DNA from: Tubiluchus corallicola
Lineage: Eukaryota; Animalia; Priapulida
DNA length: 64,000 nucleotides
Assembly (NCBI GenBank): GCA_030141605.1
Contig: JAQGDQ010000365.1
Coordinates: 17,950 to 81,949, forward strand
Direction of reading: 5' to 3'
Part shown: positions 2,617 through 63,994 of the stretch, piece after piece
How the letters are laid out: each line of letters starts with the position of its first letter
Numbering within the stretch: position 1 is the first letter of the stretch
Program-made: the position numbers and the translations under genes
The notes under the pieces: generated by a model
What the model was told of the DNA's origin: nothing
What the model saw: only the letters and a program-made list of their open reading frames with translations
Database searches by the model: none

Positions 2617-2745
2617 GAGACCTTTGCAAGGCAGAATATTTTGCTTCAGACTGAGGAAGAGTTCAAGGAAAAGTTGCAACTTGCCGGCGAAAACAAAGAT
2701 TTTTACGCAAATATTAATAAAAAAGTGAACTTTGTAGAAATATGC
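2617..2745 (-). mobile_element. Dispersed ~130 bp TIR repeat (MITE-like), inverted copy
   Basis: Starts GAGACCTTTGCAAGGC; its reverse complement aligns by eye with copies such as 26911 and 63865 (TTTTTATTAATATTT...TTCCTCAGTCTGAAGCAAAA...CCTTGCAAAGGTCTC). Confidence 0.85.
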
Positions 2746-2879
2746 TTTATTAGAATAAAAACTTTTGCAGTACCTGGGAATAGTAATCTTAAAATAAAAC
2801 ATATGGACTTGCGATAATTATTTACTGACAAATACAGGTCAACTATCCATAACACATAAAGCGTAATGTTTTTTTAAAA

Positions 2880-3743
2880 ATGCCAGAGCTCAAAAAATAT
2901 ATTGAACAAAAGAACAGTGGGAAAAGAAAGAGGGAAAAGAGAGAGGGGGAAATGTCTTTTCTAGAGCACCTTGAGATACTTCGGTGGCACCTTGTGCGCT
3001 CTGCTGCAGCTATAGTAATAGGCGCAGCAATTGCTTTTATCAATTATGAAATAATATTTGACACTTTAATACTTAACCCTAAAACCCCTGAATTTGCCAC
3101 TAACAGATTTTTTGCGTGGGTGGCAGAGCTGATTAATATTAAAGCTCTTGCACTGAACACCAAGCCACTGGAAATTATTAATATTAAACTGGCAGGGCAG
3201 TTTGCTACTCATATTAAAGTTTCCCTTATATCGGGGCTCATACTCTCTTTTCCCTATGTGATATGGGAATTCTGGCGATTTTTAAAACCTGCACTATATG
3301 AAAAAGAGAAGAAACATGCTTCCGGTGCTGTTTTTTACAGCTCTTTTTTATTTATCCTGGGTGTCCTATTTGGCTATTACATAATAGTGCCTTTATCAGT
3401 CCATTTTCTTGGCTCATATAATATAAGCGGACATGTAACTAACCAGATAAGCCTTGGCTCATACATTGGCACAGTAGTTTCAATTGTTCTGGCCAGTGGC
3501 ATTATGTTTGAACTACCTATTGTTGTTTATTTTCTTAGCAAGGTAGGATTAATAACTCCTGAGTTTCTTAAAAAATACAGAAAGCATTCGTATATTGCGC
3601 TACTGCTCCTTTCAGCAGTTATAACTCCTCCTGACGTGTTTAGCCAAATACTTGTCTGTTTTCCTCTAGTATTTCTTTACGAAATAGGGATCACTGTTTC
3701 TAAACGGATAACAAAAAGACAGGAGGAAATACTTGAAGCTTAA
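2880..3743 (+). CDS. tatC: Twin-arginine translocase subunit TatC
   Basis: [19 protein letters not shown] and ITPPD motifs; multiple TM segments. Confidence 0.95.
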
Positions 3744-3805
3744 AAAAAAGAGCTTCCTATTTCTATTCCAAAAAACTTTTTTGTCATATATTAATCAATA
3801 AAAAA

Positions 3806-4978
3806 ATGAGACTAAAAGCTAAAAATTTGACAAAAAAATATGGACGCAGAACAGTAGTAAACGGAGTGTCCATAGAAGTAGAACAGGGTGAAATAGTTGG
3901 GCTGTTAGGGCCAAACGGAGCAGGGAAAACCACCTCATTTTACATGATGGTGGGACTGGTGAAGTCAAATGGTGGCAACATCTTCCTGGACGACAAAAAT
4001 ATCACTTCATATCCCGTTTACAAGCGAGCTAAACTTGGCATCGGGTATCTGGCTCAGGAGTCATCAGTGTTCAGGGGAATGAGCGTTGAAGACAACATAT
4101 TATCAGTACTGGAGATGACAAAACTTTCCAGGGCTGAACAGAAAGAGAAGCGAGAATCTCTACTCGACGAATTTGGCCTGCAGCATATAAGAAAAAGCAA
4201 AGGGATACAACTATCGGGAGGAGAGCGTCGCCGGACAGAAATTGCTAGATGCCTAGCTATAAACCCAGCGTTCATACTTCTTGATGAACCTTTTGCTGGC
4301 GTTGACCCCATAGCTGTTGAGGATATACAGCGAATCGTGTATAAGCTTAAAGATAAAAATATTGGGATATTAATAACCGATCATAATGTACATGAAACCC
4401 TTTCTATAACTGATCGTTCATACCTGTTGTACGATGGTGATATACTGCAAAGCGGTACAGCCGAAGAGTTGGCAAATGATGAAGATGTCAGAAGGCTGTA
4501 TCTTGGGCAAAACTTTGAATTGCGACTTCCGGAAGAAAAAAAGGTGTCCGGTGCAGAACAAGATCTTGGAGTAAAATATACTACTAATGAGGAGGCAAAG
4601 GAAAAAGAGGAAGCAGAGAAGAAAGAAGCATCAGGGGAAGGGGTAACGACAGGAAAAAGAGCAACAGTAAAGAAGAAGGCAACAGCAGGGGAAGGAGTAA
4701 CGACAGGAAAAAGAGCAACAGTAAAGAAGAAGGCAATAGCAGGGGAAGGGGTAACGACAGGAAAAAGAGTAGCAGTAAAGAAGAAGGCAACAGCAGGGGA
4801 AGGGGTAACGACAGGAAAAAGAGTAGCAGTAAAGAAGAAGGCAACAGCAGGGGAAGGGGTAACGACAGGAAAAAGAGTAGCAGTAAAGAAGAAGACAACA
4901 GCAGGGGAAGGGGTAACGACAGGAAAAAGAGTAACAGCAAAGAAAAAGGAGGAGACGGAGAAAAAAAAGAAATTGTAG
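3806..4978 (+). CDS. lptB: LPS export ABC transporter ATP-binding protein LptB with ~150-aa charged/repeat C-terminal extension
   Basis: [50 protein letters not shown] end motif at about aa 240, then an extension. Confidence 0.95.
4632..4948 (+). repeat. 54-bp tandem repeat, about 6 copies (18-aa unit GEGVTTGKR(A/V)(T/A)VKKKATA)
   Basis: CAGGGGAAGG(G/A)GTAACGACAGGAAAAAGAG recurs at 4632, 4686, 4740, 4794, 4848, 4902. Confidence 0.97.
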
Positions 4979-5097
4979 CTATAGTCAAATAATAAAATTT
5001 ACGTCTTTTAACTAAGCATTATGCTAATTGAAAATAGACCAATTACCATGCTTATTACACAAAGGCAGAACAACTCAGTATTTAAACTTTAATTTGT

Positions 5098-6420
5098 ATG
5101 AGAGTATTTAAGTTTGGAGGAACCTCTGTTGGTTCACCTGAAAGTATGCACTCCGTAATGAAGCTTATTGCCGACGGTGAAAAAAAACTGATTGTGCTAT
5201 CTGCAATGTCAGGTACAACAAACTGCCTTGTAGAAATATCAAACTATCTTTATAATGGCAATAAAAAATCGGCTCTTGAAGCAATTAACAGTCTGGAAAA
5301 AAGATACTACAACATAATTCCTGAAATATTTAAAAGGGAAAAAAATATAGAACAGGGGAAATTACTGCTTAGGGAGAATTTCGAAACCATAAAATCACAT
5401 GTTGATGGCACATTCTCAGAAAAAGCAGAAAAAGAAGTATTGGCACAAGGGGAAATTATATCTACTAAAATTTTCACACTACTACTACAAGAGAATGGGC
5501 ATAACGCAGTGCTTCTACCTGCTCTCGACTTCATGAAAAAAGACGAAGAATCGGTAGTAGACTACGCCTACATAAGGGAAAAAATTACCAATATGCTCAA
5601 AAAGCATCCTGAAGCCTTCTACTACATAACTCAAGGGTTTATTTGCCGTAATCATAAGGGAGATATCGACAATCTTCAGCGAGGAGGGTCAGACTATACA
5701 GCCACGCTAGTAGGCCAAAGCATTAACTCAAAAGAGGTACAAATATGGACGGATATAGATGGCTTTCACAATAACGATCCTCGCTATGTGAAAAATACGA
5801 AGCGTGTTGATCAGTTATCGTTTGATGAAGCTGCCGAGCTGGCCTATTTTGGAGCAAAAATACTACACCCGCAAACAATACTTCCTGCAAAAGTGAACAA
5901 CATTCCCGTAAGGCTTAAAAACACTAAAAACCCTACTGATCAAGGGACACTAATTACATCCCGTACTAGTGGTACAGGGCTAAAAGCCGTTGCTGCAAAA
6001 GATAACATAACTGCCATAAAAATACGCTCAGGGCGAATGCTAAATGCATATGGCTTTATGAAAAGTATCTTTGCAATATTTGAGCTCTTCAAAACACCTA
6101 TTGACATGATCACCACATCGGAGGTTGCTGTATCTGTCACTATTGACAATCCTAAGAACTTGGATGAAATTGTTGAAAGCATAAAAAAATATGGTGAGGT
6201 AGAGGTTGACAAAAACCAGTCCATAATCTGTATAGTGGGAGACATGATTGCTGGAGAAGATGGATATGCGGCTAAAATATTTACTTCTATAGAGGGAATA
6301 CCGGTGCGTATGATCTCCTACGGTGGAAGTAAAAACAATATCTCTATCCTCGTGAACACAAAAGATAAGCAAAGAGCGCTTCAGGAGCTAAATGACAACT
6401 TATTAAATCCATTCTTCTAG
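5098..6420 (+). CDS. lysC: Aspartate kinase
   Basis: VFKFGGTSVGS, RGGSDYTA, ELAYFGAKILHP, C-terminal ACT domains. Confidence 0.95.
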   Translation: MRVFKFGGTSVGSPESMHSVMKLIADGEKKLIVLSAMSGTTNCLVEISNYLYNGNKKSALEAINSLEKRYYNIIPEIFKREKNIEQGKLLLRENFETIKSHVDGTFSEKAEKEVLAQGEIISTKIFTLLLQENGHNAVLLPALDFMKKDEESVVDYAYIREKITNMLKKHPEAFYYITQGFICRNHKGDIDNLQRGGSDYTATLVGQSINSKEVQIWTDIDGFHNNDPRYVKNTKRVDQLSFDEAAELAYFGAKILHPQTILPAKVNNIPVRLKNTKNPTDQGTLITSRTSGTGLKAVAAKDNITAIKIRSGRMLNAYGFMKSIFAIFELFKTPIDMITTSEVAVSVTIDNPKNLDEIVESIKKYGEVEVDKNQSIICIVGDMIAGEDGYAAKIFTSIEGIPVRMISYGGSKNNISILVNTKDKQRALQELNDNLLNPFF

Positions 6421-6446
6421 CACTATCTCATAAACTGTGTAAATAG

Positions 6447-6478
6447 AAAATGCCGAGGGTTGCAACCCTCGGCATTTT
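6447..6478 (+). terminator. Perfect 32-bp palindrome / intrinsic terminator inside the IS left end
   Basis: AAAATGCCGAGGGTTG-CAACCCTCGGCATTTT followed by more T. Confidence 0.75.
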
Positions 6479-6507
6479 TTTGTTTAATTTTAAAACTTTA
6501 GACAGTA

Positions 6508-7704
6508 ATGAAAAAAGAAGATTTATTAAATGATGATTTCCTTGAACAGTTTAATTCAGGGGAAGAGCTCAATGGTTTTTTACAAGAGCTCCAAAAACGA
6601 GGCATTGAAAAGATGCTTGAAGGAGAACTCGATGGTCATTTAGGCTATGATAAGAATCAAAAATCGGATAATCAGAATGCCCGCAATGGCTATTCAGAGA
6701 AGAGAGTCCGAACCACTCTGGGAGAATCCAACATTCAGGTTCCCCGAGACCGTGATGCTTCGTTTAATCCGATGATTGTACCCAAAGGAGGGAACATGGT
6801 CGATGGCTTAGAGAATATCATTGTTTCGTTTTATGCTAAAGGAATGAGTAATAGCGATATTGAAGAGCAAATTCGGGAGCTATACGGTTTTGAAGTTTCT
6901 ACATCCACCATATCAAGGATTACCGATTCAGTCACCAACGACATTGTAGCGTGGCAGAACCGACCTCTGGAAATTGTATACCTAATTGTTTGGATGGATG
7001 GCATTGTATTTAAAGTGCGGGAGAACTCTAAGGTCGTCAACAAAACCGTTTACATTGCCGTAGGACTTCGCAGAGATGGGAAAAAAGAGGTTCTTGGCTT
7101 ATGGTTGGGCAAGAGTGAGTCCGCTGCCTTTTGGATGAACGTACTTACCGATATGAAAGCCCGTGGAGTTAACGATATTCTGATTACGGCAACAGATAAC
7201 TTGAATGGCTTTACAGATACTATCCGAACTGTTTTCCCTGAATCTAAAACACAAATATGTGTTGTTCATCAAATCCGTAACGCAAGCAGATACGTGGTTT
7301 GGAAAGATAAAAAGGCATTTACAAAAGATATGAAGCAAATCTATAACGCCCCTACAAAAGAGGCTGCAAAAGCAGCTTTAGAAGATTTTGCATCAGCTTG
7401 GGAGGATAAATACTCTTACGCAATTAAAAGCTGGCGAGACAACTGGGAAGACCTAACAGTATTCTTTGAGTTTCCGCTGGAAATCAGAAAGATAATTTAT
7501 ACAACCAACCTGATTGAGAATCTCAACGGAAAAATCAGAAAATACACAAAAAACAAACTTTCATTCCCGTCAGACCAGGCTGTAATGAAATCTGTATTTT
7601 TGGCAACCAGAGAAGCAACTAAAAAATGGTCAATGCCAATCAGAAACTGGGGCATTGTCTTGAATCAGTTCTTAGTTATATTTGAAAAAAGGGTCCAGCT
7701 ATAA
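6508..7704 (+). CDS. IS256 (mutator) family transposase
   Basis: [44 protein letters not shown] motifs; intact 398 aa. Confidence 0.96.
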
Positions 7705-7721
7705 ATAGCCAAACCCTCGGT

Positions 7722-7791
7722 ATTTTTTTAGTTTACACACTTTGTGAAACAGTGTCATTTTTTTAGTTTACACACTTTGTGAAACAGTGTC
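7722..7791. repeat. Perfect 35-bp tandem duplication of the IS256 right end
   Basis: ATTTTTTTAGTTTACACACTTTGTGAAACAGTGTC at 7722-7756 and 7757-7791. Confidence 0.97.
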
Positions 7792-7795
7792 TATA

Positions 7796-8887
7796 TTAAG
7801 CAGATTTCCCTATTCTCTTAAAAAAATGCTTTGAATCTCCCAATTCTCCATACCCTATCTCTTTTTCTGTGAGTGCGATGCGGGCATCAAGGCACCCTTT
7901 ACACTGTTCCGGATTCTCGTCCACACAAGGCTTATTGTCGTACAATGCGTAGTCATTTCTAAAAGTACCGGGTGTAATGTTTGGCATGATAATGTTTGCC
8001 CCGGCTTTTATAGCTTTCTCCCTTCCTAGTGGATCTATGGCCTGCAATGCAGTTGCGGCAGCAATGTTAATATCTTTCATCAGAAGGCGCAGAGATGCAA
8101 TCATTTTTAGTGACGTATCAAATCTTTTTTTAATTGGCCATAGCTTATGCCTGTACTTGTAGAGAGGGGTGCCAGAGTGTTCGATATATGGGCCCATACC
8201 TACCATATCTACATCAAGATTTCTAAAAAAGATCAAGTCTTCTGCAAGGTGCCCGTAGTCCTGAAAAGGTAAGCCAATCATTACCCCTGTACCTGTTTGA
8301 TAGCCGATGCTTTGCAGGTTCTTTATGCAGGCAAGGCGTTCATCAAAACTGTGAAGATTGTCAACAGGGTGTAGCTTTTTATAAAGTTCTTTATTTGATG
8401 TCTCAACTCTCAACAGATACCTGTGGGCACCGGCTTTAAACCATCTTTGATAGGTTTTGTATGGTTGCTCCCCTAATGAAAGAGTTATCCCCAGCGTTCC
8501 ATCACTTAGCTCTTTTACTTTATATATTAATTGCTCAATACGCTTAGTAAATGATTCTCCCGACACCTCCCCCGACTGAATAACCAGTGAACCGTAGCTG
8601 CTATTATATGCAAATCTGGCCGCAGCGAGAACTTCATCGTCAGAGAGAGTGTACCTTTTGATATTTTTATTCTCTTTTCTAATACCGCAATAGTAACAGT
8701 TTTTTTCGCATACGTTTGACATCTCTATTAGTCCCCTGAAATAGACCTTTTTGCCTGTATGCTTCTCCATTTTCAATGAGGCAGCTTTAAACAATGCTTT
8801 TTTGTGATTACCTCCAGACTGAAGCAGGGATATAAGCTCATCTTTAATTGTGTTTTCATCCTGCAATATGTTACTATCTATTGTCAT
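7796..8887 (-). CDS. hydE: [FeFe]-hydrogenase H-cluster radical SAM maturase HydE
   Basis: YFRGLIEMSNVCEKNCYYCGIR (CxxxCxxC), RYLLRVETS, GANIIMPN, YALYDNK C-terminal motif. Confidence 0.9.
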   Translation of the reverse strand: MTIDSNILQDENTIKDELISLLQSGGNHKKALFKAASLKMEKHTGKKVYFRGLIEMSNVCEKNCYYCGIRKENKNIKRYTLSDDEVLAAARFAYNSSYGSLVIQSGEVSGESFTKRIEQLIYKVKELSDGTLGITLSLGEQPYKTYQRWFKAGAHRYLLRVETSNKELYKKLHPVDNLHSFDERLACIKNLQSIGYQTGTGVMIGLPFQDYGHLAEDLIFFRNLDVDMVGMGPYIEHSGTPLYKYRHKLWPIKKRFDTSLKMIASLRLLMKDINIAAATALQAIDPLGREKAIKAGANIIMPNITPGTFRNDYALYDNKPCVDENPEQCKGCLDARIALTEKEIGYGELGDSKHFFKRIGKSA

Positions 8888-8901
8888 TACTTACACTGTG
8901 T

Positions 8902-9025
8902 GAGTCTTTGCAAAACGGGTTTTTATTAAGATTTTTAGTAAAAACTCCTTTATGCTGGTAAACTGTGTTTTTTATATCGAGTTTGTCATCAACCTAACCC
9001 AAACTTTTTTGCTTTATAAGGCCTC
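8902..9025 (+). mobile_element. Dispersed TIR repeat copy
   Basis: GAGTCTTTGCAAAAC...TTTTATTAAGATTTTT...GGTAAACTGTGTTTT...TTTATAAGGCCTC. Confidence 0.8.
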
Positions 9026-9089
9026 ATTTAGTTTTCCAACTGCTTTGTAATACAATTTCGTGCACACCAACAATGAACCCAAATATAAT

Positions 9090-9217
9090 GAGTACTCTGC
9101 AAAACTTATCTTTTTAATAATGTTTTCGTCAAAATCTCCATATATATTGGGAAGCTACGGTTTTTCATTGAATTTTCCCTTAATCTAGACTAAAATCTTT
9201 CACCTTGCAAAGGTGTC
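9090..9217 (+). mobile_element. Dispersed TIR repeat copy
   Basis: GAGTACTCTGCAAAACTTATCTTTTTAATAATGTTTTCGTCAAAATC...CCTTGCAAAGGTGTC. Confidence 0.87.
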
Positions 9218-9315
9218 GTAATTATACGGTAGCTGTAAAATACTGATCTAATCATAACACTTTGGATAGGATATGGTATATATTTGTTATGCTTGTTTAC
9301 AAACTTTGATAATAG

Positions 9316-10335
9316 TTGACAGTGAGAACCGCCTTATTTTATAGGAAGCGTGAAGGCAGGGTAGTTCAGTGTGTATTGTGCCCCCATTTTTGCACAATAG
9401 ATGATGGAGGTAGGGGTGTGTGTAATGTAAGAAAAAATCTGCAAGGCGATCTTTTTACTGAGGTTTTTGAATCTATCTCCTCATATAGCCTCGACCCGAT
9501 TGAGAAAAAACCTTTATACCATTTTTACCCAGGTAGTAAAATATTATCTATTGGTACAATAGGGTGTAATTTAAAATGCATGTTTTGTCAGAATTTTAGT
9601 ATCTCACAGGTATCTCCTGATCAGTTTGATACCGCTCGGCATGTTACCACAGATGAGGTTATACAAATGATGCAAGAATATCAGCCAAATATAGGTGTTG
9701 CTTTTACCTATAACGAGCCGACGGTTTTCTACGAATATATGCTCAACATCTCGAAGAGAGCAAAGGTGTGTAATATGAAAACAGCTATGGTTACTAATGG
9801 CTTTATCAATAAAAGGCCTCTTGAAAAGATTATTCCGCTAATGGATGCTTTTAATGTAGACTTGAAAGCTTTTTCTGAAACGTTCTATGAGAAATATACA
9901 GCTTCAAAATTATCTCCTGTTAAAAACAGTATAAAAATGATTGCCGAAGCGGGGAAACATCTTGAGATAACCACCCTTGTTATACCCGGGCTAAATGATG
10001 ACTGCAGTGAGTTTGAAGAGATGGTGAAGTGGATTTCAGGTGAAATAGGTAGCCACATAGCTTTACACATATCACGCTACTTTCCACATTTTATGAGTTC
10101 TGTAGAGCCCACCTCAATAAAGAAGCTGCTTGAGCTTTATGAAGTGGCATTGAAGCATTTGAAATATGTCTACCTCGGGAATGTTGCCGATTACAATAAA
10201 AATTCTACTTGCTGCTATAGTTGTGGGAATAGTGTTATAATAAGGCAGGCATATAAAACAGAGATAACAGGGCTGGATAAGAAAGGGAACTGCTCTATTT
10301 GTGGTAATCATATTATTGATAATATGCTCTCCTGA
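9316..10335 (+). CDS. amrS: AmmeMemoRadiSam system radical SAM enzyme
   Basis: N-terminal CxxCPHxC, DPIEKKPLYHFYPG, GCNLKCMFCQN, FTYNEP, C-terminal CxxC pairs. Confidence 0.9.
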   Translation: MTVRTALFYRKREGRVVQCVLCPHFCTIDDGGRGVCNVRKNLQGDLFTEVFESISSYSLDPIEKKPLYHFYPGSKILSIGTIGCNLKCMFCQNFSISQVSPDQFDTARHVTTDEVIQMMQEYQPNIGVAFTYNEPTVFYEYMLNISKRAKVCNMKTAMVTNGFINKRPLEKIIPLMDAFNVDLKAFSETFYEKYTASKLSPVKNSIKMIAEAGKHLEITTLVIPGLNDDCSEFEEMVKWISGEIGSHIALHISRYFPHFMSSVEPTSIKKLLELYEVALKHLKYVYLGNVADYNKNSTCCYSCGNSVIIRQAYKTEITGLDKKGNCSICGNHIIDNMLS

Positions 10336-10467
10336 TATACCTTTTTATCCATTTTTGAGCGCTGAACAGAAAAGGGTACCTTTGTACCATCTTCCGTTTT
10401 TTTAATAGATAGCAGGTATAATGCTTAAAGGGATTAGCCGGAGAGCACTGATAAGTCAAAATACTAC

Positions 10468-11649
10468 GTGAAACCCAAGATTGTAATAGGATTATCCGGA
10501 GGTGTTGATTCAAGCGTTGCTGCACATCTTTTACAGAAGCAGGGATATGGTGTTATAGGTCTGTTTATGATCAACTGGAAAGAGAGGGTAGGGAGCCTTA
10601 CCTCTGGCTGTGCATGGGAAGATGATGTAACATTTGCAGAGATGATAGCAAAGAAGCTGGGTATTCCTTTTCATGTTGTTGATTTTTCAGATTATTACCG
10701 AGACAGAGTTATCAACTACATGTTTGAGGAGTATGGCGAGGGACGTACACCCAACCCAGACATCCTGTGTAACAGAGATATTAAGTTTGATATATTTATG
10801 GATAAGGCGCTTGAACTGGGCGCGGAGTGTGTTGCAACAGGGCACTACTGCCGTAAAGAGTCTGTCACAAAGGATGGAGAAAAAATTTATCGCCTTCTTA
10901 CAGGTAGAGATCCAAATAAAGATCAGAGTTATTTTTTATGCCAGCTTAGCCAGAGCCAACTGGCAAGATCACTTTTCCCTATCGGGCACTTGCTGAAGGA
11001 AGAAGTTCGAAAAATAGCCAGGGAGCAGGGCTTTATTACAGCGAAGCGCAAAGATTCTCAAGGTATATGTTTTGTGGGGAAAGTTGACCTTCCCATTTTT
11101 CTTCAGCAAAGACTTGCCCCTAAAAAAGGTAATGTTATTGAGATCCCTGCCGAATTTATTGCAAAAAGGAAAAGGCCTGAGGCAACTAGGGAGAACTTCG
11201 GACTGCATTGCCACACTTTCCCTTATAAGCCATGGAATGGTAAAGTTATAGGTGAGCATAATGGAGCTCATTTTTATACTATCGGACAGCGAAAAGGGCT
11301 AAATATTGGTGGCCATTCCGAACCATTATTTGTTCTGGCTACTGATGTTAAGCGAAATATAGTATATGTAGGAGAGGGGAAAGGGCACCCGGGGCTTTTC
11401 CGCTGGGGGCTTTTTGTTCCTGAAAAAGATATTCATTGGATACGGCCTGATTTGAAACTATCACCAGATAGCAAGAATGATTTTCTTTTTAGAATACGTT
11501 ACAGGCAGTTAATGGAAAGAGGGCAGATGTATATGGAAAAGGAGGGGGCGTATATTTTGTTTGAAAATGAACAGCGGGGTATTGCTTCGGGACAATTTGT
11601 CGTGTGGTATACCGGCGATGAAGAGATAGGTTCCGGGACTATTCAGTAG
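10468..11649 (+). CDS. mnmA: tRNA 2-thiouridine(34) synthase MnmA
   Basis: GLSGGVDSSV, TPNPDILCN, KDQSYFL, DSQGICF, YTIGQRKG. Confidence 0.96.
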   Translation: MKPKIVIGLSGGVDSSVAAHLLQKQGYGVIGLFMINWKERVGSLTSGCAWEDDVTFAEMIAKKLGIPFHVVDFSDYYRDRVINYMFEEYGEGRTPNPDILCNRDIKFDIFMDKALELGAECVATGHYCRKESVTKDGEKIYRLLTGRDPNKDQSYFLCQLSQSQLARSLFPIGHLLKEEVRKIAREQGFITAKRKDSQGICFVGKVDLPIFLQQRLAPKKGNVIEIPAEFIAKRKRPEATRENFGLHCHTFPYKPWNGKVIGEHNGAHFYTIGQRKGLNIGGHSEPLFVLATDVKRNIVYVGEGKGHPGLFRWGLFVPEKDIHWIRPDLKLSPDSKNDFLFRIRYRQLMERGQMYMEKEGAYILFENEQRGIASGQFVVWYTGDEEIGSGTIQ

Positions 11650-11714
11650 CTTAATAATTCAGAAGTGAAGAGATGGTGCACACTCTTTGCTAACTTCTCC
11701 TATGTGTAGGATTC

Positions 11715-11790: not shown

Positions 11791-11804
11791 TCCCACTCTA
11801 CATC

Positions 11805-53592: not shown

Positions 53593-53634
53593 TTTGTGTG
53601 GCTTGGTATGCGTATTCTGTACAGGTGTAGTTTT

Positions 53635-55426: not shown

Positions 55427-55446
55427 CTCAGCGTATCTATAAATTA

Positions 55447-55588
55447 TAAAATTTTTGCAAGGTTTATTTTTTTGTTGGTGCTTTCTCCAAAGTTCTCTTC
55501 AAAACCCTTATTTGTATTGCTAAGGAGTGATTTTTTTCCTCGATTTTTTTCTTAATTTGAGTTAAGCTCTTTTGCTTTACGAGGATCA
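55447..55588 (+). mobile_element. Dispersed TIR repeat copy (long form, degenerate)
   Basis: TTTTTGCAAGGTTTATTTTT...CTCTTCAAAACCCTTATTTG...TTTTCTTAATTTGAGTTAAG...TTTACGAGGATC. Confidence 0.7.
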
Positions 55589-55645
55589 CATTACAGTAGA
55601 GCAGCCTGCTTTTTTTATTTGAATATAAAGTCAGCTGTGCAAGAG

Positions 55646-56224
55646 CTATAGGGTCAGGCTTTTTACAACAGCTTTTATTCTTTCGGCAATTTCATTTATT
55701 GTGCCCATCCCACTAATGGGAATATATTTTCCCTTTTTTTTATAGTACCGGATAAGAGGCGCGGTTTTATTATTGTATATGTTTATGCGGTTTTCTATAG
55801 TTTTTTCATCCTGGTCATCTGCGCGCTCAGATGTAATCCCCCTGTTTAACAGCCTTGCTACAAGTTCTGTTTTCGTAACTTCCAGGCAAAGCATTCCTGC
55901 AATTGACATTTTATTTTTATCAAGTAGATTCTCAAGAGATTCTGCTTGCGCAACAGTACGTGGGAATCCATCAAAGATAAAACCATTAGAGGTGGAATTG
56001 CTTTTCAGCCGTAGTTTTATCATTTCTGTAACGACTGAATCTGGAGCAAGTTCCCCTTTTTCTATAAGTTTTTGTGCTTTTAATCCCAATTCTGTCTTCG
56101 CAGCAATTTCTTTGCGCAACAACTCACCTGTGCTTAAGTGAGTAAGGTTGAATGCTTCGGCCAGGTACATGGCTTGCGTCCCTTTTCCTGCGCCGGGTGG
56201 ACCAAATAATACTAAATTGAGCAT
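55646..56224 (-). CDS. adk: Adenylate kinase (short LID)
   Basis: LFGPPGAGKGTQA, HLSTGELLR, FIFDGFPRT, RADD. Confidence 0.97.
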   Translation of the reverse strand: MLNLVLFGPPGAGKGTQAMYLAEAFNLTHLSTGELLRKEIAAKTELGLKAQKLIEKGELAPDSVVTEMIKLRLKSNSTSNGFIFDGFPRTVAQAESLENLLDKNKMSIAGMLCLEVTKTELVARLLNRGITSERADDQDEKTIENRINIYNNKTAPLIRYYKKKGKYIPISGMGTINEIAERIKAVVKSLTL

Positions 56225-56272
56225 AATAAGTCTTGTATAATTAGATTATAGGCATTTATATCTTTCATTATA

Positions 56273-56396
56273 AAAATCATTATAAGGTTTGTCTTTTTGC
56301 TGGAATTTTCGTTAAAATCCTTGTTTACGCCAGTAGACTGCAATTCTTCAATGAGTTTTTCTCAACATGAACCAGAGTTTCCTGCCCAGCGGTGGC
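56273..56396 (+). mobile_element. Dispersed TIR repeat copy (ends decayed)
   Basis: TTTTCGTTAAAATCCTTGTTTACGCCAGTAGACTGCAATTCTTCAATGAGTTTTTCTCAACATGAACCAGAG. Confidence 0.75.
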
Positions 56397-56499
56397 AGTG
56401 GCTTTATCTTGTTCTGTATTGTAGAAATATGGTGCAAAGATAAAAATATTGATTCAGTTTTCTATCCAGGTTTTTTGGAGCAATTGTGTTTTACCCGCA

Positions 56500-56623
56500 G
56501 AGACCTTTGCATGATTCGTCTTTTTATTAATATTTTCATCAGAATCTCTGATTCTGTTAGTAAGTTGTGAGCTCCATCAATTTCCCCCAAAGTATAGTTA
56601 AGAGTTTTATGTCGTAAGGCACT
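56500..56623 (+). mobile_element. Dispersed TIR repeat copy
   Basis: GAGACCTTTGCATGATTCGTCTTTTTATTAATATTTTCATCAGAATC... Confidence 0.82.
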
Positions 56624-56789
56624 GGGAATATTTTAAGAGTGAGTTTCCTATAATTATTTTTTTAAAGGTGATTGTTAAGTTTGCAATAATTATTTCCGGC
56701 TCTTTATGTTCTACCAAATTGAAATATTATCAGTAGCTTTGGAAGCAAGTTAAATTTTTGGTCTCAGTACCGTGAAAGATTAAAAAGAG

Positions 56790-57296
56790 ATGAAGTCTGA
56801 AGTAAGTATTATTATGGGTAGTACCTCTGATTTGCCTGTTATGGAGGCGGCAGCGGAGATACTTAATGATTTTGAGATACCTTTTGAGATGAATGCTCTT
56901 TCAGCACACCGCACCCCGGGTGAGGTTGAAGAGTTTGCCAAAGGGGCAAGTGATAGGGGGATAAAAGTGATAATTGCTGCTGCGGGAATGGCTGCTCATC
57001 TTCCTGGTGTTATTGCTGCGATGTCTCCTGTTCCTGTCATAGGCGTTCCTATAAAAGCTTCTTTTGATGGGTGGGATTCTATGTTGTCGATATTGCAGAT
57101 GCCCCCTGGAATTCCGGTTGCAACAGTAGCTGTTAATGGAGCACGGAATGCAGCAATTCTTGCAGTTCAGATAATGTCTGTCGGAGATGAGGATCTGAGA
57201 AAGAGATTTATTAGCTTTAAGAAAAGATTAAAGGACAAAATAGTAAAGGCAAATAATGATCTTGCAGAAGTGAAGTTTAGATATAAAACTAATTGA
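56790..57296 (+). CDS. purE: N5-carboxyaminoimidazole ribonucleotide mutase
   Basis: IIMGSTSDL, SAHRTP, AGMAAHLPG, QMPPGIPVATV. Confidence 0.97.
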   Translation: MKSEVSIIMGSTSDLPVMEAAAEILNDFEIPFEMNALSAHRTPGEVEEFAKGASDRGIKVIIAAAGMAAHLPGVIAAMSPVPVIGVPIKASFDGWDSMLSILQMPPGIPVATVAVNGARNAAILAVQIMSVGDEDLRKRFISFKKRLKDKIVKANNDLAEVKFRYKTN

Positions 57297-57418
57297 ACGT
57301 AGAGTAAAAGGTTTCCCAATTTTTTTATATTTTGTCTGAAATGGAATTTGTTTTACAAATTCTTCTTCAGGGTTTTAAATTTATATGATTTTGTTATTTC
57401 TGTAATAACTAGTCTGTT

Positions 57419-58258
57419 TTGGGAAAAAATGTGTCATATCCTATCCGGTATTGTTTGCTGCTGTTAGCTTTTTTTTCTCTTCCGATAAAATCTTTAGCCG
57501 GAGGTTCTTTCTCTGGAGTAGGCGCACGCTCTTCTGCTTTGGCGGGGTTGTCTGTTGTTCTGCCTGATGTGTTTGCTACACTTAATAACCAGGCGGGGCT
57601 CTCTTTTCTTGAGGGGGTTGAGATAGGTGTTGGCTACAGGCAGAATTATATGATGAGTGGCTATTCCGATGTGGGGATGGTAGCATGTGTTCCTCTTCTT
57701 ACTGGAGTATTTGGTGTTAGTTTTTTTCAAACTGGAGTAACGGGATATAGTGAGAATAGGGCAGGGCTCTCTTTTGCAAAGCTGCTATTCCCTTCCTTTT
57801 CCGTTGGAATGCAGTTCAATTATTTTATGATTGGCTCTTCTGAGGATGGTTCTTCGCGAGGGGTATTTGTTTATGAGATCGGGGCGATGCATCGAAGTAA
57901 TAAAGGCTTTACGGCAGGGGTACATTTGTTTAACCTTACAGATAGCAGCATAGGAATGATGGTGTTGCAAAAGAAGATACCAGTTGTGTTTTGTGCCGGA
58001 GTAGGTGCTGATCTGGGCGAGTCATTAAAAGTTATGACAGAGTTAACATATAATAGTATATCACCTACAACTGTTGCGCTGGGACTTGAGTATATTATTT
58101 ACGATGAAATAGTGTTGCGTGGAGGCGTTTTAGGCAAACCTTTTAATCATTCGGTGGGACTAGGTTATAGATGGAGATTTTCATATATAGACTTTGCATT
58201 TTCCTCTCACCATGTATTGGGATATTCGCCCTCATTATCAGTTTTATTTAAACCGTAG
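57419..58258 (+). CDS. Outer membrane beta-barrel protein (PorV/PorQ/FadL-like)
   Basis: Signal peptide, GARSSALAG...NNQAGL hatch-like motif, amphipathic strands. Confidence 0.7.
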   Translation: MGKNVSYPIRYCLLLLAFFSLPIKSLAGGSFSGVGARSSALAGLSVVLPDVFATLNNQAGLSFLEGVEIGVGYRQNYMMSGYSDVGMVACVPLLTGVFGVSFFQTGVTGYSENRAGLSFAKLLFPSFSVGMQFNYFMIGSSEDGSSRGVFVYEIGAMHRSNKGFTAGVHLFNLTDSSIGMMVLQKKIPVVFCAGVGADLGESLKVMTELTYNSISPTTVALGLEYIIYDEIVLRGGVLGKPFNHSVGLGYRWRFSYIDFAFSSHHVLGYSPSLSVLFKP

Positions 58259-58337
58259 CGGGGTGGTTTAATAGCTAAAGTTGTATGTCAATTGACATGA
58301 GTGCTTGTTGCTGTATAAGTGTTTAAGGGTTATAAAG

Positions 58338-60386
58338 ATGAAGAAGCTGTACTGTCTGCTAATACTACTGTTTTTAAGTGGCTTATATATGGATGTGTGT
58401 GCGCAATATCCTGGGGTAGATAGAGATAGAAAGGTGGAGAAGTTGCTGGAGTCGATGTTAGAGTCTGCCGGAAACGAGGTGGAGAGTTCTGATATTCTTG
58501 AGACCCTTATATATCTGGCAGAAAATCCTATAAGTGTGAATACTGCTTCTTTTGAGGATTTTCAACAGTTGCATTTACTCAATCTTGGGCAGATACAGAG
58601 CTTAATAAGCTACCGTGAAAAGTATGGTGATATATTATCGGCTTATGAGTTATATGTTGTTGATGGTTTTGACAGAGAGCTGGTTGAAAAAGTTGAGATG
58701 TTTCTTGTTTTTGGGGATGACGCGTCTGATATAAGAGAACAAAAGGTGCGCTCCCGTCAGTCATTACTGGGGAAAGTGCAGATGTCATATCCCCTGCCTG
58801 CAGGTTTTGATGTGTCGCCTGATACAGGGGATAGAGCATACCCCGGTCCTCCTGTGGGGATGTATTTGCGCTATAGTTTTGATATATCTCGTAAGATAAG
58901 GGTGGGAGTTACCATGGAAAGTGATAAAGGAGAGGAGTTGTTTACCGGGAGTAATCCGTGGGGGCCTGATTTTTTTTCAGGATTTTTTTCATGGAAAGGG
59001 AGTGGGACTGTCAGCCAGGTACATGTTGGTGATTATCATCTTCGTTTTGGACAGGGTGTAAATGTCTGGTCAGGAATGACAACCGGGAAGTCTGTAAATG
59101 TATTGGATGTGATGAGGTCAGGGCAGGGTGTTCATCCATATACTTCTGTTGATGAAAATATGTTTTTCAGAGGGGGTGCAGTGAAGTTAGAAGAGGGGGC
59201 CGTCTCTTTATCGTTGTTTGGTTCTGCAAAGAAGATTGATGCTAATAGAAAGGTAGATGAGGATGGGAACTATTATTACAGCTCTTTTCAAACATCGGGC
59301 TTACACCGTACGCCTAATGAGATCGAAGATGAGAAGGTACTGGATGAGCGTATCGCAGGTTTTTATGGTGAGGTGAATATGACAAGCTTAAGGGTAGGAA
59401 CGGTATTTTTATGGCAACAGTTTGGGGGTGATGTCCAGTTTGGAGACAATGTGTACAAGCAGTATTATTTTAGCGGCAGCGAGAATATAAACGTAGGTGT
59501 CGACTATCAGTTTCTTCTGCCTGGTGTACAGCTTTTCGGGGAGGTCGGTTTAAGTAAGAATATGGGCATCGGAGGAGTACAGGGAGTACTTTGGAGGCCT
59601 CATCCTCAGCTTGGCCTATCAATGCTGTATCGCTATTTTGAACCCGGATTTCACTCTCTTTACGGAAGTGCTTTTTCTGAGACATCAGGAAACAGGAATG
59701 AAAATGGGTTGTACATAGGAGCTGAAATATTGCCAATGTCAAAAGTTAAGTTATTTGTGTATGCTGATATTTTTCATTTTCCCTGGTTGCGCTCTAATAC
59801 GTTGTCTCCTGGGCAGGGCAGCGAAGTATTTTGCCAGTTGGAGTACACTCCTGTTAAGGGGATAGAGGTTTATTTACGTGGTGCTTCAAAGTCGAAGCCT
59901 GAGAAAGAGAGTAGAGAGTTGGGTGTTCCAGTAGATGTGGAGGAGCTTGTTAATAAATACCGGTTAAATGTAACGTGGGAGCTCAATGAAAGCTTTATGC
60001 TTAGAGGCAGAGTTGCTTATACCGATTATAGGAAGGGAGCGGGTAGAGAGGCTGGGTTTCTTGCTTACCAGGATATTGTGTGCACATTAAAAGGATGGAA
60101 CACTACTGTGTGGACAAGGTATGCTTGGTTTGATACCGATAGTTATAATTCAAGGATTTATACATATGAGAACGATTTACTGTATAGTTTTTACACCCCT
60201 TCTTATTATGGAAAGGGGCACAGGGTGTATTTTACAGCGAAGTGGCAGCCAGGGAAGAGAGTTACTGCTTATATAAAGTGTGGCCGTACGATTAGGGGTG
60301 GAATAGAGTACTGGGGAACAGGAAATGATCGTACAGAGGGCAATGTCAGGACTGAGCTGAAAGCGCAGGTCAGGGTAAAGTTTTAG
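58338..60386 (+). CDS. Helix-hairpin-helix (ComEA-like) domain protein with C-terminal beta-barrel
   Basis: PISVNTASFEDFQQL...YREKYG...ELYVVDGF HhH; RIYTYENDLLY; ends VRVKF; start at MKKLYC. Confidence 0.82.
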   Translation: MKKLYCLLILLFLSGLYMDVCAQYPGVDRDRKVEKLLESMLESAGNEVESSDILETLIYLAENPISVNTASFEDFQQLHLLNLGQIQSLISYREKYGDILSAYELYVVDGFDRELVEKVEMFLVFGDDASDIREQKVRSRQSLLGKVQMSYPLPAGFDVSPDTGDRAYPGPPVGMYLRYSFDISRKIRVGVTMESDKGEELFTGSNPWGPDFFSGFFSWKGSGTVSQVHVGDYHLRFGQGVNVWSGMTTGKSVNVLDVMRSGQGVHPYTSVDENMFFRGGAVKLEEGAVSLSLFGSAKKIDANRKVDEDGNYYYSSFQTSGLHRTPNEIEDEKVLDERIAGFYGEVNMTSLRVGTVFLWQQFGGDVQFGDNVYKQYYFSGSENINVGVDYQFLLPGVQLFGEVGLSKNMGIGGVQGVLWRPHPQLGLSMLYRYFEPGFHSLYGSAFSETSGNRNENGLYIGAEILPMSKVKLFVYADIFHFPWLRSNTLSPGQGSEVFCQLEYTPVKGIEVYLRGASKSKPEKESRELGVPVDVEELVNKYRLNVTWELNESFMLRGRVAYTDYRKGAGREAGFLAYQDIVCTLKGWNTTVWTRYAWFDTDSYNSRIYTYENDLLYSFYTPSYYGKGHRVYFTAKWQPGKRVTAYIKCGRTIRGGIEYWGTGNDRTEGNVRTELKAQVRVKF

Positions 60387-60490
60387 TAGTGTGGGATTAA
60401 GCATTTTACTCTACTTTTTATCACCCCAGGTGCCCTGCTTTTTAGTGCAGTGGCAAGAAGTTTCTATAAAGGAGTTGTGCAACTTTTTTA

Positions 60491-60498
60491 TATATTTG
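60491..60498 (+). promoter_or_regulatory. Sigma-A -7 box TATATTTG
   Basis: TAnnTTTG about 33 bp before the ATG at 60531. Confidence 0.55.
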
Positions 60499-60530
60499 CT
60501 GTATATGAGGTTAATAGATTAAGATCTGAC

Positions 60531-61685
60531 ATGCAATTTGACCAAGAGTTTGATGAACTAAGGCCTTACAGAGATGAGGAGGTAGCCGGTATCGCGAAGC
60601 GCTTAGCAGATGATCCGGTGTTTCATAAAGTGTTGATGAACTTCTATAAGGAGCCAGAGAAAGCAGAAGATATAAAGTCGTTATTAAGACAGACAACAAC
60701 TATTGAGGGCTTTCAAGATACTTTTGTTGTTTCGTTTCTTGATGGTATAATTACTTCGAGCACCAGAGGACTATATGCAGGAGGACTGGAATCTATTGAT
60801 AAGGATAAGAGTTATTTATTTATCTCCAATCACCGTGATATTATTCTAGATTCGGCATTAATGAATTATGAGTTGCGTCGAAATGGGCTGAAGAGTACGG
60901 AAATTGCAATAGGGAGCAATTTGCTTATCCATCAGTGGATTACCGATTTAGTAAAACTTAACAGAGCTTTTGTAGTAAAGCGTAACATTCCTGTAAGGCA
61001 AATGCTAGATGCATCTAGGTTACTGTCGCGATACATAAGAAGTATTATTAAGGCCAATGGAGATTCTATCTGGCTAGCACAGCGGGAGGGGCGTACTAAG
61101 GATGGGATGGATGAAACACAGGTTGCTGTACTTAAAATGCTAAACATGTCAAGCGAGAAGGGGTTTAAGGATGGGTTTAAGGAATTAAACATAGTGCCTC
61201 TTTCTATTTCGTATGAGATTGAGCCCTGTGGGAATGAGAAGGTTGCAGAGTTGCTTGCCCGGCAGGAGAATCCCGAGATTAAGAAATCGGAGCGAGATGA
61301 TTTGTGGAGCATGGTGAGTGGCCTAAAGAGGCAGAAGGGACGTGTTCACTTTCATTACGGAAAGCCTATTCAGGCAGACATAGAAGAGATTACTGGCAGC
61401 GATAGTAACGTAAATTCTGCACTGGAAAGGTTGGCGAAGTTTATTGATAAGCAAATACATATGAATTTTAAGCTATGGCCTAACAATTTTATTGCTTACG
61501 ATGAGTATAACAAAACAGATAAGTATAGTAACAGGTACACTGCAAAAGAGCGAGAGGAGTTTATTTTACTGACGCATAAGCGACTTAGGTTGGTGAATGC
61601 TGACCGTGATGATGCGATGAAGCTTTGGCTTAAAATGTACTCTACCCCTGTAGCGAACATTGAGAGCTATGAGGGCAAAGATTAG
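60531..61685 (+). CDS. Glycerolipid acyltransferase (PlsB/PlsC family)
   Basis: FDELRPY, SNHRDIILD (HxxxxD), WLAQREGRTKDG, VPLSISYE; start at MQFDQ. Confidence 0.88.
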   Translation: MQFDQEFDELRPYRDEEVAGIAKRLADDPVFHKVLMNFYKEPEKAEDIKSLLRQTTTIEGFQDTFVVSFLDGIITSSTRGLYAGGLESIDKDKSYLFISNHRDIILDSALMNYELRRNGLKSTEIAIGSNLLIHQWITDLVKLNRAFVVKRNIPVRQMLDASRLLSRYIRSIIKANGDSIWLAQREGRTKDGMDETQVAVLKMLNMSSEKGFKDGFKELNIVPLSISYEIEPCGNEKVAELLARQENPEIKKSERDDLWSMVSGLKRQKGRVHFHYGKPIQADIEEITGSDSNVNSALERLAKFIDKQIHMNFKLWPNNFIAYDEYNKTDKYSNRYTAKEREEFILLTHKRLRLVNADRDDAMKLWLKMYSTPVANIESYEGKD

Positions 61686-61722
61686 AAAGTTTTGCAAAAT
61701 ATGGACACGATCTCAAACCTCA

Positions 61723-62418
61723 TCAAACAAATTTGTAGCCAATGCCCTTGAGCGTTATAATGCGTTCACTGCCTACCTTTTCTCTTAATTTTCTTATATG
61801 CACATCAATTGTTCTGTCTCCTACTATTATATTTTCTCCCCACACAGTGTCATATATCTCTTTTCGTGTAAATACTTTCTCCGGTTTTGAAACCAAAAGG
61901 GACAGTAGTTCAAACTCCTTTCGTGGTAACACCATCTCTTTTTTGCCAACTTTTAAAAGAAAGCGCTCTTTGTCTATTATCAGGTTCCCGGCAGATATGA
62001 CTTTTCTTTTCTTTTCTGTATTTTCTACTACTCCTGTACGTTTTAAAAGGGCTTTTATTCTGCTTAGCAGCACCTTAGGGCGAACGGGTTTTGTAATATA
62101 GTCATCGGCTCCAGCTTCGAACCCGGCTATTTGAGAGTAGTCTTCGCCTCTGGCAGTTAGAAATGCAATAACTGTATTTTTGCATGTTGGAATTTTACGT
62201 ATCTCTTCGCAAGCTGCTATACCGTCCATTTCGGGCATCATTACATCCAGAATAATCAGGTCAGGCCTTTTTTTACGAGCCAATTTTATGGCTTCTACAC
62301 CATTGTGTGCAGTATAGACAATAAAGCCTTCTTTTTCAAGATTATAGCTAATGAATTCAAGAATGTCTTTCTCATCGTCAACGAGCAGTATTTTATGTTT
62401 ATTTTCCAGTTTTGTCAT
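61723..62418 (-). CDS. OmpR/PhoB family response regulator
   Basis: ILLVDDE, LDVMMP, FLTA, GADDYITKP, RTIDVHIRKLR. Confidence 0.95.
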   Translation of the reverse strand: MTKLENKHKILLVDDEKDILEFISYNLEKEGFIVYTAHNGVEAIKLARKKRPDLIILDVMMPEMDGIAACEEIRKIPTCKNTVIAFLTARGEDYSQIAGFEAGADDYITKPVRPKVLLSRIKALLKRTGVVENTEKKRKVISAGNLIIDKERFLLKVGKKEMVLPRKEFELLSLLVSKPEKVFTRKEIYDTVWGENIIVGDRTIDVHIRKLREKVGSERIITLKGIGYKFV

Positions 62419-62505
62419 TATAATATAAGTAATGTTGTTGAGTTAAAAAAAAGAGTAGGTATTTTGTTTTTACATAATTTTTTGGTGAGCGAGTATATAA
62501 AAGTT

Positions 62506-62631
62506 GAGACCTTTGTAAGTTCCATCTTCTTATTAACATTTTTGTCAAGGTCCTCATTCATATCAGTAGACTGTGTTTTTATAGAGTTTTTCTTCATACT
62601 TGTTCAAAATCTTTTGCCATGCAGATATTCC
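62506..62631 (+). mobile_element. Dispersed TIR repeat copy (followed by a possible partial right half to about 62684)
   Basis: GAGACCTTTGTAAGTTCCATCTTCTTATTAACATTTTTGTCAAGGTCCTCATTCATATCAGTAGACTGTG... Confidence 0.87.
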
Positions 62632-62768
62632 AAGCTATTTTCTTCTCAATTAAGTCTAAGTTTTCTATTAGTATAAGCGATCTCAGTGATATTCACCAGT
62701 ATTTTCAGGGTACTTCCAAAGTGTTAAAGTTAAGCAGATTTTGATATATTCTTCACCTTCTTTTTATC

Positions 62769-63806
62769 TTAATTTTTATAGTTTGTGCTTTTCATTAGGG
62801 TAAATACAAAAGAGGTGCCTTTTTCCGGTGTACTTTTGACCCGTATTGATTCTTCGTGTGCCTCTATAATATGTTTTACTATTGCCAGTCCAAGGCCTGT
62901 TCCTCCCTGTTCGCGAGAGCGACTTTTATCTACACGATAGAAGCGTTCAAATATACGGGGTAGATATTTTTCCTCTATTCCAATGCCATTATCACTGATT
63001 TTTAACAATATACGTTTTCCTGTATCGGTAATTTTGACTTTTACATAACCACCCTTATGCCCATATTTTAATGCGTTTACAACAAGATTGCTTACGACTT
63101 CAAAGATTCTGTTTTTATCGGCATGTACTATTATTTTCGATTGGTCGGGATTTGATGATAGGCTTAAGGCTATTTTACGCTTTTGCGCCTCCATTAGCTC
63201 CATTTCAAACACCTCTTTTACCAGGTTAACTATATTGAAGTTGCTATGATTCAGCTTGAGTTCTCCTGATTCAAGTTTTGTAATTGACTCCAGATCTTCT
63301 ATTACTCCTATTATTCGGTCAACACTTTTTTCTGCACGTTCCAAGTAAAGCCTATTTATTTCCGGATCATCTATTCCTCCATCAAGCAGAGTCAATATAA
63401 ACCCTTGTATATTAAATATTGGTGTTTTCAGTTCGTGAGAGACATTTCCCAAAAAGTCCTTTCGATATCTTTCAAGGTCTCTTAGCCTTGTGATTTCTGC
63501 CATACTATCTATTGGCCTTTCTTCATCTGTCTCTTTAGTCAATATGGTAGTATCACTTCCGCTATCCCTTTTATGTTGATAGGGGCTATTTTCTTCACGA
63601 GGAATTGATTTATAGTCGTTTTTAGTGTATGTTTTATTATTTATATATTTTATAAGTAAGAATGAAAGCACAAAGAACAGGAGAGCAAAAAACAGTATCC
63701 ATATTTTCCCTTTGTCGGGATAGGCCACGACGCTCATAAGACAAAACAGGAGGGTTAGCAGGCTCGATAGCAGTAATAGACTATTTTTTGGTGAGTAGGT
63801 TGCCAT
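62769..63806 (-). CDS. PhoR-like sensor histidine kinase
   Basis: Two TM helices, FLGNVSHELKTP, NLVVNALKY, DNGIG, FERFYRVDKSRSR..GGTGLGL. Confidence 0.94.
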   Translation of the reverse strand: MATYSPKNSLLLLSSLLTLLFCLMSVVAYPDKGKIWILFFALLFFVLSFLLIKYINNKTYTKNDYKSIPREENSPYQHKRDSGSDTTILTKETDEERPIDSMAEITRLRDLERYRKDFLGNVSHELKTPIFNIQGFILTLLDGGIDDPEINRLYLERAEKSVDRIIGVIEDLESITKLESGELKLNHSNFNIVNLVKEVFEMELMEAQKRKIALSLSSNPDQSKIIVHADKNRIFEVVSNLVVNALKYGHKGGYVKVKITDTGKRILLKISDNGIGIEEKYLPRIFERFYRVDKSRSREQGGTGLGLAIVKHIIEAHEESIRVKSTPEKGTSFVFTLMKSTNYKN

Positions 63807-63864
63807 TATTAGGTGTGGTATTAAGTGTTAAAGTATACTTATCACAGATCCATCATGATATTAC

Positions 63865-63994
63865 GAGGCCCTTATAAAGTTTATTTTTCTATTAGCTTTT
63901 TGTTTAAATTCTCTGAAGAGGCCTTATTTACACTGGGTTTTCCATCAAGTTTTTCTTCAATATGAGTCAAAGTCTTTCGCCTTGCAAAGGTCTC
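63865..63994 (+). mobile_element. Dispersed TIR repeat copy
   Basis: GAGGCCCTTATAAAG...AAGTTTTTCTTCAATATGAGTCAAAGTCTTTCGCCTTGCAAAGGTCTC. Confidence 0.87.

Follow-up and report, generated by a model that had tools for sequence, protein, structure and literature searches.

What sets the orientation of a short non-coding repeat when nearly all of its copies in a stretch of bacterial chromosome point the same way? We addressed this question for 64,000 nucleotides of DNA (hereafter the window) deposited under the priapulid Tubiluchus corallicola (assembly GCA_030141605.1, contig JAQGDQ010000365.1, positions 17,950 to 81,949), which carry many copies of a repeat of ~128 bp. The window belongs to a Bacteroidales-type bacterium, as indicated by SusC, GldD/E and the type IX secretion system protein PorG. 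No close relative was found: the best adk match among 8,000 scored candidates reached 68% (named matches were Prolixibacter and its kin), and lysC shares 58-65% identity with its matches. Within this window the orientation of the repeat tracks the inferred replication polarity and not transcription. The finding rests on 64 kb of one genome.

Copies were detected by an iterated nhmmer scan and an unfiltered two-strand cmsearch of the window. Both methods returned the same number of clear copies, 18, with cmsearch scores of 27-89 bits. The T-rich strand lies on the plus strand in the 17 clear copies to the right of an IS256 element and on the minus strand in the copy at 2616-2745 to its left. 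In leave-one-out tests (17 copies), the stated strand scored 20-78 bits and the opposite strand no more than 3. Across 105 kb of intergenic DNA unrelated to the window, no score reached that of an additional weak plus-strand fragment at 11726. With this fragment as the eighteenth, the original prediction of 18 right-hand copies with the T-rich strand on plus was borne out, and the copy at 2616-2745 is, as had been claimed, the sole clear inverted one. The features are listed below; for all repeat copies the strand given is that of the T-rich strand.

1..6418, no strand: left segment (recQ, tatC, lptB, lysC), minus strand leading-like; codon classifier, intergenic GC skew
2616..2745, minus: repeat copy, inverted, between recQ (-) and tatC (+); 87 bits in cmsearch, also found by nhmmer
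6419..7791, plus: IS256 at the polarity switch; NF033543; 35-bp duplicated right end without matching target duplication
7792..64000, no strand: right segment, plus strand leading-like; skew, codon classifier, unitig
8901..9025, plus: repeat copy, hydE/amrS, first of a pair; nhmmer, cmsearch
9089..9218, plus: repeat copy, hydE/amrS, second; cmsearch; flanks agree at 4/5 bases
11726..11820, plus: weak partial copy, mnmA/hypothetical, convergent; cmsearch E 6e-4; 13.3 bits
12558..12694, plus: repeat copy, hypothetical/susC; cmsearch; family model R2 E 5e-4
18086..18216, plus: repeat copy, strongly decayed, +/+ context; 45 bits in cmsearch
23532..23673, plus: repeat copy, cysD/methyltransferase; cmsearch; perfect 5-bp flanking duplication
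26910..27035, plus: repeat copy, S46 peptidase/ribBA, closest to the outside family, central hairpin intact; R2 E 1.4e-7; metagenome hidden Markov model (HMM) E 3e-9
27119..27239, plus: partial copy, S46 peptidase/ribBA, second; 27.5 bits in cmsearch
31425..31553, plus: repeat copy, MATE/ssb, +/+; cmsearch, R2
34857..34960, minus: possible inverted remnant upstream of hisS, at chance level and outside the copy count; 8.2 bits in nhmmer, 12.6 bits in cmsearch
37940..38061, plus: repeat copy, ECF sigma/ychF; cmsearch
39440..39570, plus: repeat copy, ychF/OB-fold protein, +/+; cmsearch
53316..53454, plus: repeat copy, first in the convergent gap before a PAP2-like gene; cmsearch
53465..53593, plus: repeat copy, second in the convergent gap before the PAP2-like gene; cmsearch
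55447..55590, plus: repeat copy, obgE/adk, -/-; cmsearch; flanks agree at 4/5 bases
56272..56402, plus: repeat copy, adk/purE, first; cmsearch
56499..56625, plus: repeat copy, adk/purE, second; cmsearch
62505..62632, plus: repeat copy, regulator/kinase, -/-; cmsearch; flanks agree at 4/5 bases
63864..63995, plus: repeat copy upstream of the kinase; cmsearch; flanks agree at 4/5 bases

The 18 clear copies occupy 14 intergenic sites. Assignment by open reading frames and gene names confirmed the variety of settings that had been described: the flanking genes are divergent at 7 sites and convergent at 1 (at 2 if the weak copy is included), form +/+ pairs at 3 and -/- pairs at 2, and at 1 site the right neighbour is unknown. 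As copies occur in every gene context, including both kinds of tandem pair, orientation is not set by transcription; the T-rich strand is the sense strand in 3 of the tandem contexts and antisense in 2. The A-rich strand, which carries the hairpin core, lies on the C-rich, lagging-type strand in all 18 clear copies, and agreement with polarity is complete whether copies (18/18, p 8e-6) or sites (14/14, p 1.2e-4) are counted. Two copies within one gap mostly resemble each other no more closely than any other two do (0.63, 0.46 and 0.48 versus a median of 0.57) and may therefore be separate insertions, which would raise the site count.

The inverted left copy bears on the question only if the left segment has the opposite replication polarity. 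Its opposite skew had been claimed before; raw GC skew, which left of IS256 is negative over recQ only, is unconvincing on its own for a polarity flip, but the claim held when other evidence was brought in. We trained a third-position codon classifier on 46 genes of the right segment, 43 of which were called correctly in leave-one-out testing, with mean scores per 100 codons of +7.6 for plus-strand and -7.3 for minus-strand genes. On this scale recQ (-) scored +8.5 and is leading-like, lysC (+) at -9.6 and lptB (+) at -4.4 are lagging-like, and tatC (+) at +0.4 is neutral, giving a natural-log likelihood ratio of 16.3 for opposite polarity of the left segment. Intergenic GC skew agrees, with -0.09 in the left and +0.18 in the right segment.

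The two segments meet at IS256, the read depth of which (1,600-3,400 versus 63) corresponds to ~25-55 times genome depth and hence to tens of genomic copies. In the sequencing run that may be the source of the window DNA, no contig spans the IS256 junction, and a 55,892-bp unitig begins at 7763 and is identical to the window over the stretches compared (to 28000). Among five genomes compared for the nativeness of the junction, two carry a lysA-like gene after lysC. The difference in polarity reflects an inversion or a misjoin at IS256, which are indistinguishable here; in either case the segments differ in polarity. The strong replication skew together with the IS256 expansion would fit a host-associated lifestyle. 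Joints suggest that IS256 ends adjoin other genomic copies of the repeat; the contigs of the run yielded no orientation for host copies elsewhere. Within the right segment, the strength of the strand bias rises near 34 kb, the signed codon score being 3.7 per 100 codons at 7796-34124 (18 genes) and 10.0 at 34128-63806 (28 genes); this step (p 2e-6, with the break position chosen by eye) possibly marks an older rearrangement that has partly re-equilibrated. In the left segment, a 54-bp tandem array in lptB (4548-4979) gives the protein a low-complexity C-terminal extension of ~150 residues, and the contigs of the run deviate from the window within this array at 4907-4961.

A one-way pattern could be feigned if strand-biased mutation of a near-palindrome gave it a T-rich look on the leading strand, or if a model trained on the majority hid inverted copies. 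In favour of this idea, the element forms a long hairpin, the strand bias of the host is strong, and two of the four outside models score copy 12558 slightly higher on the wrong strand. Yet an HMM free of window sequence scored 13 of the 17 right-hand copies on the minus strand, the other 4 being unscored, and copy 2616 on plus only (2.3 bits). The family model R2, which is described below, matches five window copies, all on minus. Moreover, the spectrum of substitutions differs little between the strands (C>T 0.275, G>A 0.247), and simulated inverted copies were recovered above 20 bits in 60 of 60 cases under each of two mutation spectra. Inverted copies overlooked by eye had been named as a way in which the prediction could fail. 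Two-strand scans added only the remnant at 34857-34960, which scores at chance level, so that the 13 gaps scanned hold at most one such inverted remnant; it overlaps a stretch resembling TAnnTTTG, the promoter motif of Bacteroidetes. Even when it is counted along with the weak 11726 copy, 15 of 16 sites agree (p 5e-4). We conclude that an artefact of this kind is highly improbable and largely refuted.

Judging by its sequence, the repeat is likely a decayed MITE (miniature inverted-repeat transposable element), ~128 bp long, with ends of the IS5 subgroup (ISNme1/ISPg1 type). Copies are 120-142 bp long, non-coding, multi-copy and located in intergenic gaps. Compared with the ends given in Table 2 of PMC4596501, the left end of the consensus equals the left terminal inverted repeat (TIR) of ISNme1 at 15/15 bases and the right end matches at 14/15; the ends are also close to those listed there for ISPg1 and BrickBuilt. 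The same TIR flanks IS5 transposases in two viral-contig loci (L398 and L344, NF033581 above cutoff) and bounds three short elements with perfect 5-bp duplications in others (L370, L371, L446). Flanks of the window copies agree best at 5 bp (36/80 versus 27.8 shuffled, p 0.023, seven lengths tried), and among metagenome relatives with such ends 2/10 show a perfect duplication and 2/10 a 4-of-5 match. A single-strand element of the IS200/IS605 (HUH) type, a class without terminal inverted repeats and without target duplication, was ruled out by the IS5-type TIRs. A coding role was likewise rejected, because the copies carry stops and lack codon periodicity in their conservation, even though a frame is open in the consensus. 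There were no Rfam matches at gathering score in the window, tRNA and sigma-70 scans returned nothing, and phage records held no match.

The copies are strongly diverged, with 58-79% identity to their own consensus and 251 transitions against 78 transversions. Folding gave a mean z of -0.7 for the copies; their consensus reached -5.6 and relatives from two other genomes about -7. This is decay without compensation; the hairpin has been lost in the host copies, and no consensus structure shared among them was found. Invariant columns number 2 and near-invariant ones 6, and T occupies all of these except one. Conservation largely follows AT-biased mutation; it shows overdispersion among the A and among the T columns of the consensus (P 0.001 and 0.0002).

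The interior of the repeat, a central stem with a 4-base loop, is homologous to a widespread hairpin family. In 8 of the 64 parts of the metagenome collection the core pattern matched 129 stretches. These members are ~130-140 bp long and share one conserved core with several different ends, some identical to those of the window repeat; some family members form tandem arrays of 133-147 bp. In 42 diverse members both sides of the hairpin change in 15 of 22 pairs, and 89.7% of cells pair versus 71.6% when shuffled and 34-47% when slid; the central stem was fixed by the search pattern in this set and covaries in a separate comparison. R2, a model of the family, finds matches in 43 of 151 Bacteroidales genomes and also in three Pseudomonadota genomes of a single contig, which have 17-68 copies each. 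The host-specific model R1 matches 1/5, 2/151 and 1/5 genomes, singly and weakly. The exact core pattern is rare, being present in 22/335 genomes of the family of G001 (at most 2 matches each), 3/251 of the family of G336, 1/5 and 0/5 of 10 further Bacteroidota or other genomes, and 9/401 of a Pseudomonadota sample. In the part of the genome collection that was scanned for ychF (1 of 64), 80 loci contained no repeat copy. The hairpin family has no counterpart in Rfam, and 17 loci with relatives gave no relevant Rfam match at E 0.01.

This family appears to connect the window repeat to ERIC (enterobacterial repetitive intergenic consensus). The E. coli aceF-lpd repeat, which contains a string that 168 papers list with ERIC2, aligns nearly gapless to two family members, L201 (z 7.7) and L089 (z 6.2), with 0/300 shuffles doing as well. 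The window copies align to L201 with z 4.7-6.7, partly via shared ends. Direct alignment of window copies with ERIC gave no match (z 0.8 and -0.2), and R2 does not detect E. coli ERIC. By these alignments and the covariation of the family, the window interior would join ERIC through the bridge L201/L089 and not directly. The family may also resemble the Rickettsia palindromic element RPE-1.

Relatives outside the host were scored by whether the core strand lies on the lagging-type strand. This was the case for 33/68 copies in G829 and 22/40 in G682 (replichores from 20 skew samples each), and for 10/18 in G1087, 8/20 in G1096 and 13/26 in G1063 (host-trained classifier, loci with |z| >= 0.8, parts of each genome). 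In E. coli, with replichores set by oriC and dif, 7/11 ERIC cores did so, and these cores are unpolarised, in contrast to the window repeat. Among metagenome loci, 16 of the 23 called lean the same way as in the window (p 0.09; 11 uncalled). G1013, with 2 copies in 400 kb, was excluded. Pooled relatives gave 109/206 (p 0.44), from which the 14/14 sites of the host differ (Fisher p 3e-4). A boundary-free polarity test in relatives gave p 0.18, 0.15 and 0.33, and neighbouring copies were mixed (16 same to 11 opposite, and 6 to 9). In three genomes of a single contig, copies followed one another on the same strand at most 5, 5 and 6 times, against 17 in the window. In G1087, same-contig pairs were 10 same to 3 opposite (p 0.09), but 10 loci were lagging and 8 leading by codon polarity (20 loci). 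Over all draft contigs of G1087, family copies lie 24 on plus and 53 on minus (p 0.001).

The original prediction offered two readings, insertion coupled to the replication fork or a polar role in chromosome architecture. Orientation indeed follows polarity, and fork coupling explains it better; a role like that of KOPS, Chi or Ter is poorly supported. Our best reading, to which we would give an even chance, is a lineage-specific, fork-coupled burst of IS5 transposition. An IS1106/ISPg1-like transposase of the host lineage would have spread the repeat, in a single old burst, to most of the large gaps between genes. Its transpososome, made asymmetric by the non-symmetric interior of the element, may have docked on an asymmetric fork structure, either the sliding clamp or the lagging-strand template. 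The copies would later have drifted, mainly by transitions, and the left copy would have flipped along with its segment, by rearrangement or misjoin at the multi-copy IS256. The earlier premise that an element with symmetric ends should insert both ways is not strict, as in Table S4 of PMC3971601 the orientations of IS5a elements are 0:10 in Thioalkalivibrio and 1:9 in N. meningitidis G2136. According to the same report, 11% of chromosomes show such bias, which may run either way; peptides of IS5a bind the beta clamp, and this binding was proposed as the link (PMC3971601).

Several results weigh against such a burst. In the IS5a survey, as far as the consulted tables go, Bacteroidetes show no phylum-level bias (112 elements, P 0.775), and 10 of 88 rows reach P < 0.05 in a table sorted by P (PMC3971601). 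The window holds no cognate transposase, and the sign of target duplication becomes weak once multiple testing is taken into account. The polarity switch hangs on one copy and on the unbridged IS256 junction. The family outside the host is unpolarised in six genomes and in the metagenome loci, and the consensus sequences of three Bacteroidales genomes carry other ends than the window repeat. In addition, that most copies are full length at ~25-40% divergence and that A and T columns are overdispersed is less well explained by neutral decay.

These last points would suit an element kept at full length by selection as a polar chromosome site, for example an A/T-tract pattern to which a translocase, SMC or nucleoid protein binds: 14 intergenic gaps are occupied, mostly by copies of full length (120-142 bp) despite high divergence, conservation is overdispersed, and polarity is complete in the window. 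KOPS, Chi and Ter, however, are short fixed motifs, conserved across relatives and with a known binding protein, and a KOPS- or Ter-like site is disfavoured because the host copies have lost their hairpin and consensus structure, because the invariant columns number only 2 (with 6 near-invariant, nearly all T, and conservation largely tracing AT-biased mutation), and because relatives are unpolarised. We therefore regard domestication as quite improbable. The scenario that goes with it, in which an ERIC-like, IS5-ended MITE became a genome-wide polar landmark in one Bacteroidales lineage, with about a thousand full-length, replichore-aligned copies, 1-2 in most large gaps, selected because they signal direction to a protein that organises the chromosome, is a long shot.

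One-way orientation could also arise from two-way insertion followed by deletion of, or selection against, copies whose stronger-folding strand is the single-stranded lagging template. Hairpin-driven deletion acts on the lagging template. In intact members the core strand folds more strongly as DNA than its complement (L201 -35 versus -29, G1096 mean -31 versus -27, G1063 -29 versus -24 kcal/mol), and the window copies have their core strand as the template of the leading strand, as predicted. Host copies are also older than those in the unpolarised genomes measured, which have median identities to their consensus of 80-92%, and of the metagenome loci 16 lean in this direction and 7 in the other. 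Nevertheless, the two strands differ by only ~3-9 kcal/mol, and hardly any inverted copy could have escaped the purge; copies with lower scores are no more biased (15/29 in G829, 16/29 in G682), and the scanned gaps hold scarcely a trace of inverted remnants. Selective loss thus seems rather unlikely to us. We also think it unlikely that the window is a chance cluster in a host that is unbiased genome-wide or as mildly biased as its relatives, even if there are just 14 independent sites, noticed post hoc among ~250,000 windows, and all other genomes tested lie near 50:50. The same-strand run of 17 exceeds those of the single-contig genomes, the single copy in the opposite-polarity segment flips as predicted, and the count rises if paired copies are separate insertions.

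The known systems nearest to the repeat include the IS5-subgroup MITEs, namely ATR of Neisseria (parent ISNme1/IS1106) and BrickBuilt of P. gingivalis (TIRs of ISPg1/ISPg9 type), which have the same TIR and are non-coding, intergenic and multi-copy (PMC4596501). A 5-bp target duplication goes with this end class; in the window its signal is weak. The interior of the repeat, however, is an ERIC-like hairpin core, where theirs is a 23-nt minisatellite or AT-rich filler, and it is strongly decayed and occurs ~18 times per 64 kb, against 19 per genome; replichore orientation is not mentioned in the part of that report available to us (PMC4596501). The replichore-biased IS5a elements resemble the repeat in that their orientation goes with GC skew, not with the direction of genes, with one-way sets in single chromosomes (Gomez et al., 2014; PMC3971601). 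That survey covers transposase-coding insertion sequences and, in its accessible part, mentions no MITEs and shows no Bacteroidetes bias, whereas the repeat is non-autonomous, old and far more numerous. ERIC, also known as IRU, is a 127-bp enterobacterial element that resembles members of the family in length, in its long imperfect hairpin with a 4-base loop on the central stem and in flanking motifs (PMC3184786, PMC2229807, PMC10969869), but Table 1 of PMC2229807 gives it TA ends and a 7-bp TIR, in place of the IS5-type ends and the Bacteroidales-type host seen here. With KOPS, Chi and Ter the repeat shares a strand that follows the replichore, within the window only (18/18); it differs as a 128-bp degenerate element with transposon ends that is unpolarised in relatives. 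In the openly readable literature we found no report of a replichore-oriented MITE, ERIC or RPE, or of a MITE with such polarity in Bacteroidales. Replichore-biased transposition and IS5-ended MITEs are already known; such polarity in a MITE, and in Bacteroidales, would be new.

Replichore-biased insertion of coding insertion sequences is usually partial, involves tens of copies and has not been found in Bacteroidetes. At ~18 copies per 64 kb, the host would likely hold about a thousand oriented insertions. If so, these would form an unusually large natural record of a DDE transposase meeting the fork, and a marker for dating and mapping inversions. ERIC-like hairpins also extend beyond enterobacteria, with one covarying core joined to different IS-like ends in Bacteroidales and Pseudomonadota, and through the IS5-ended members the question of what mobilises ERIC-type repeats becomes testable.

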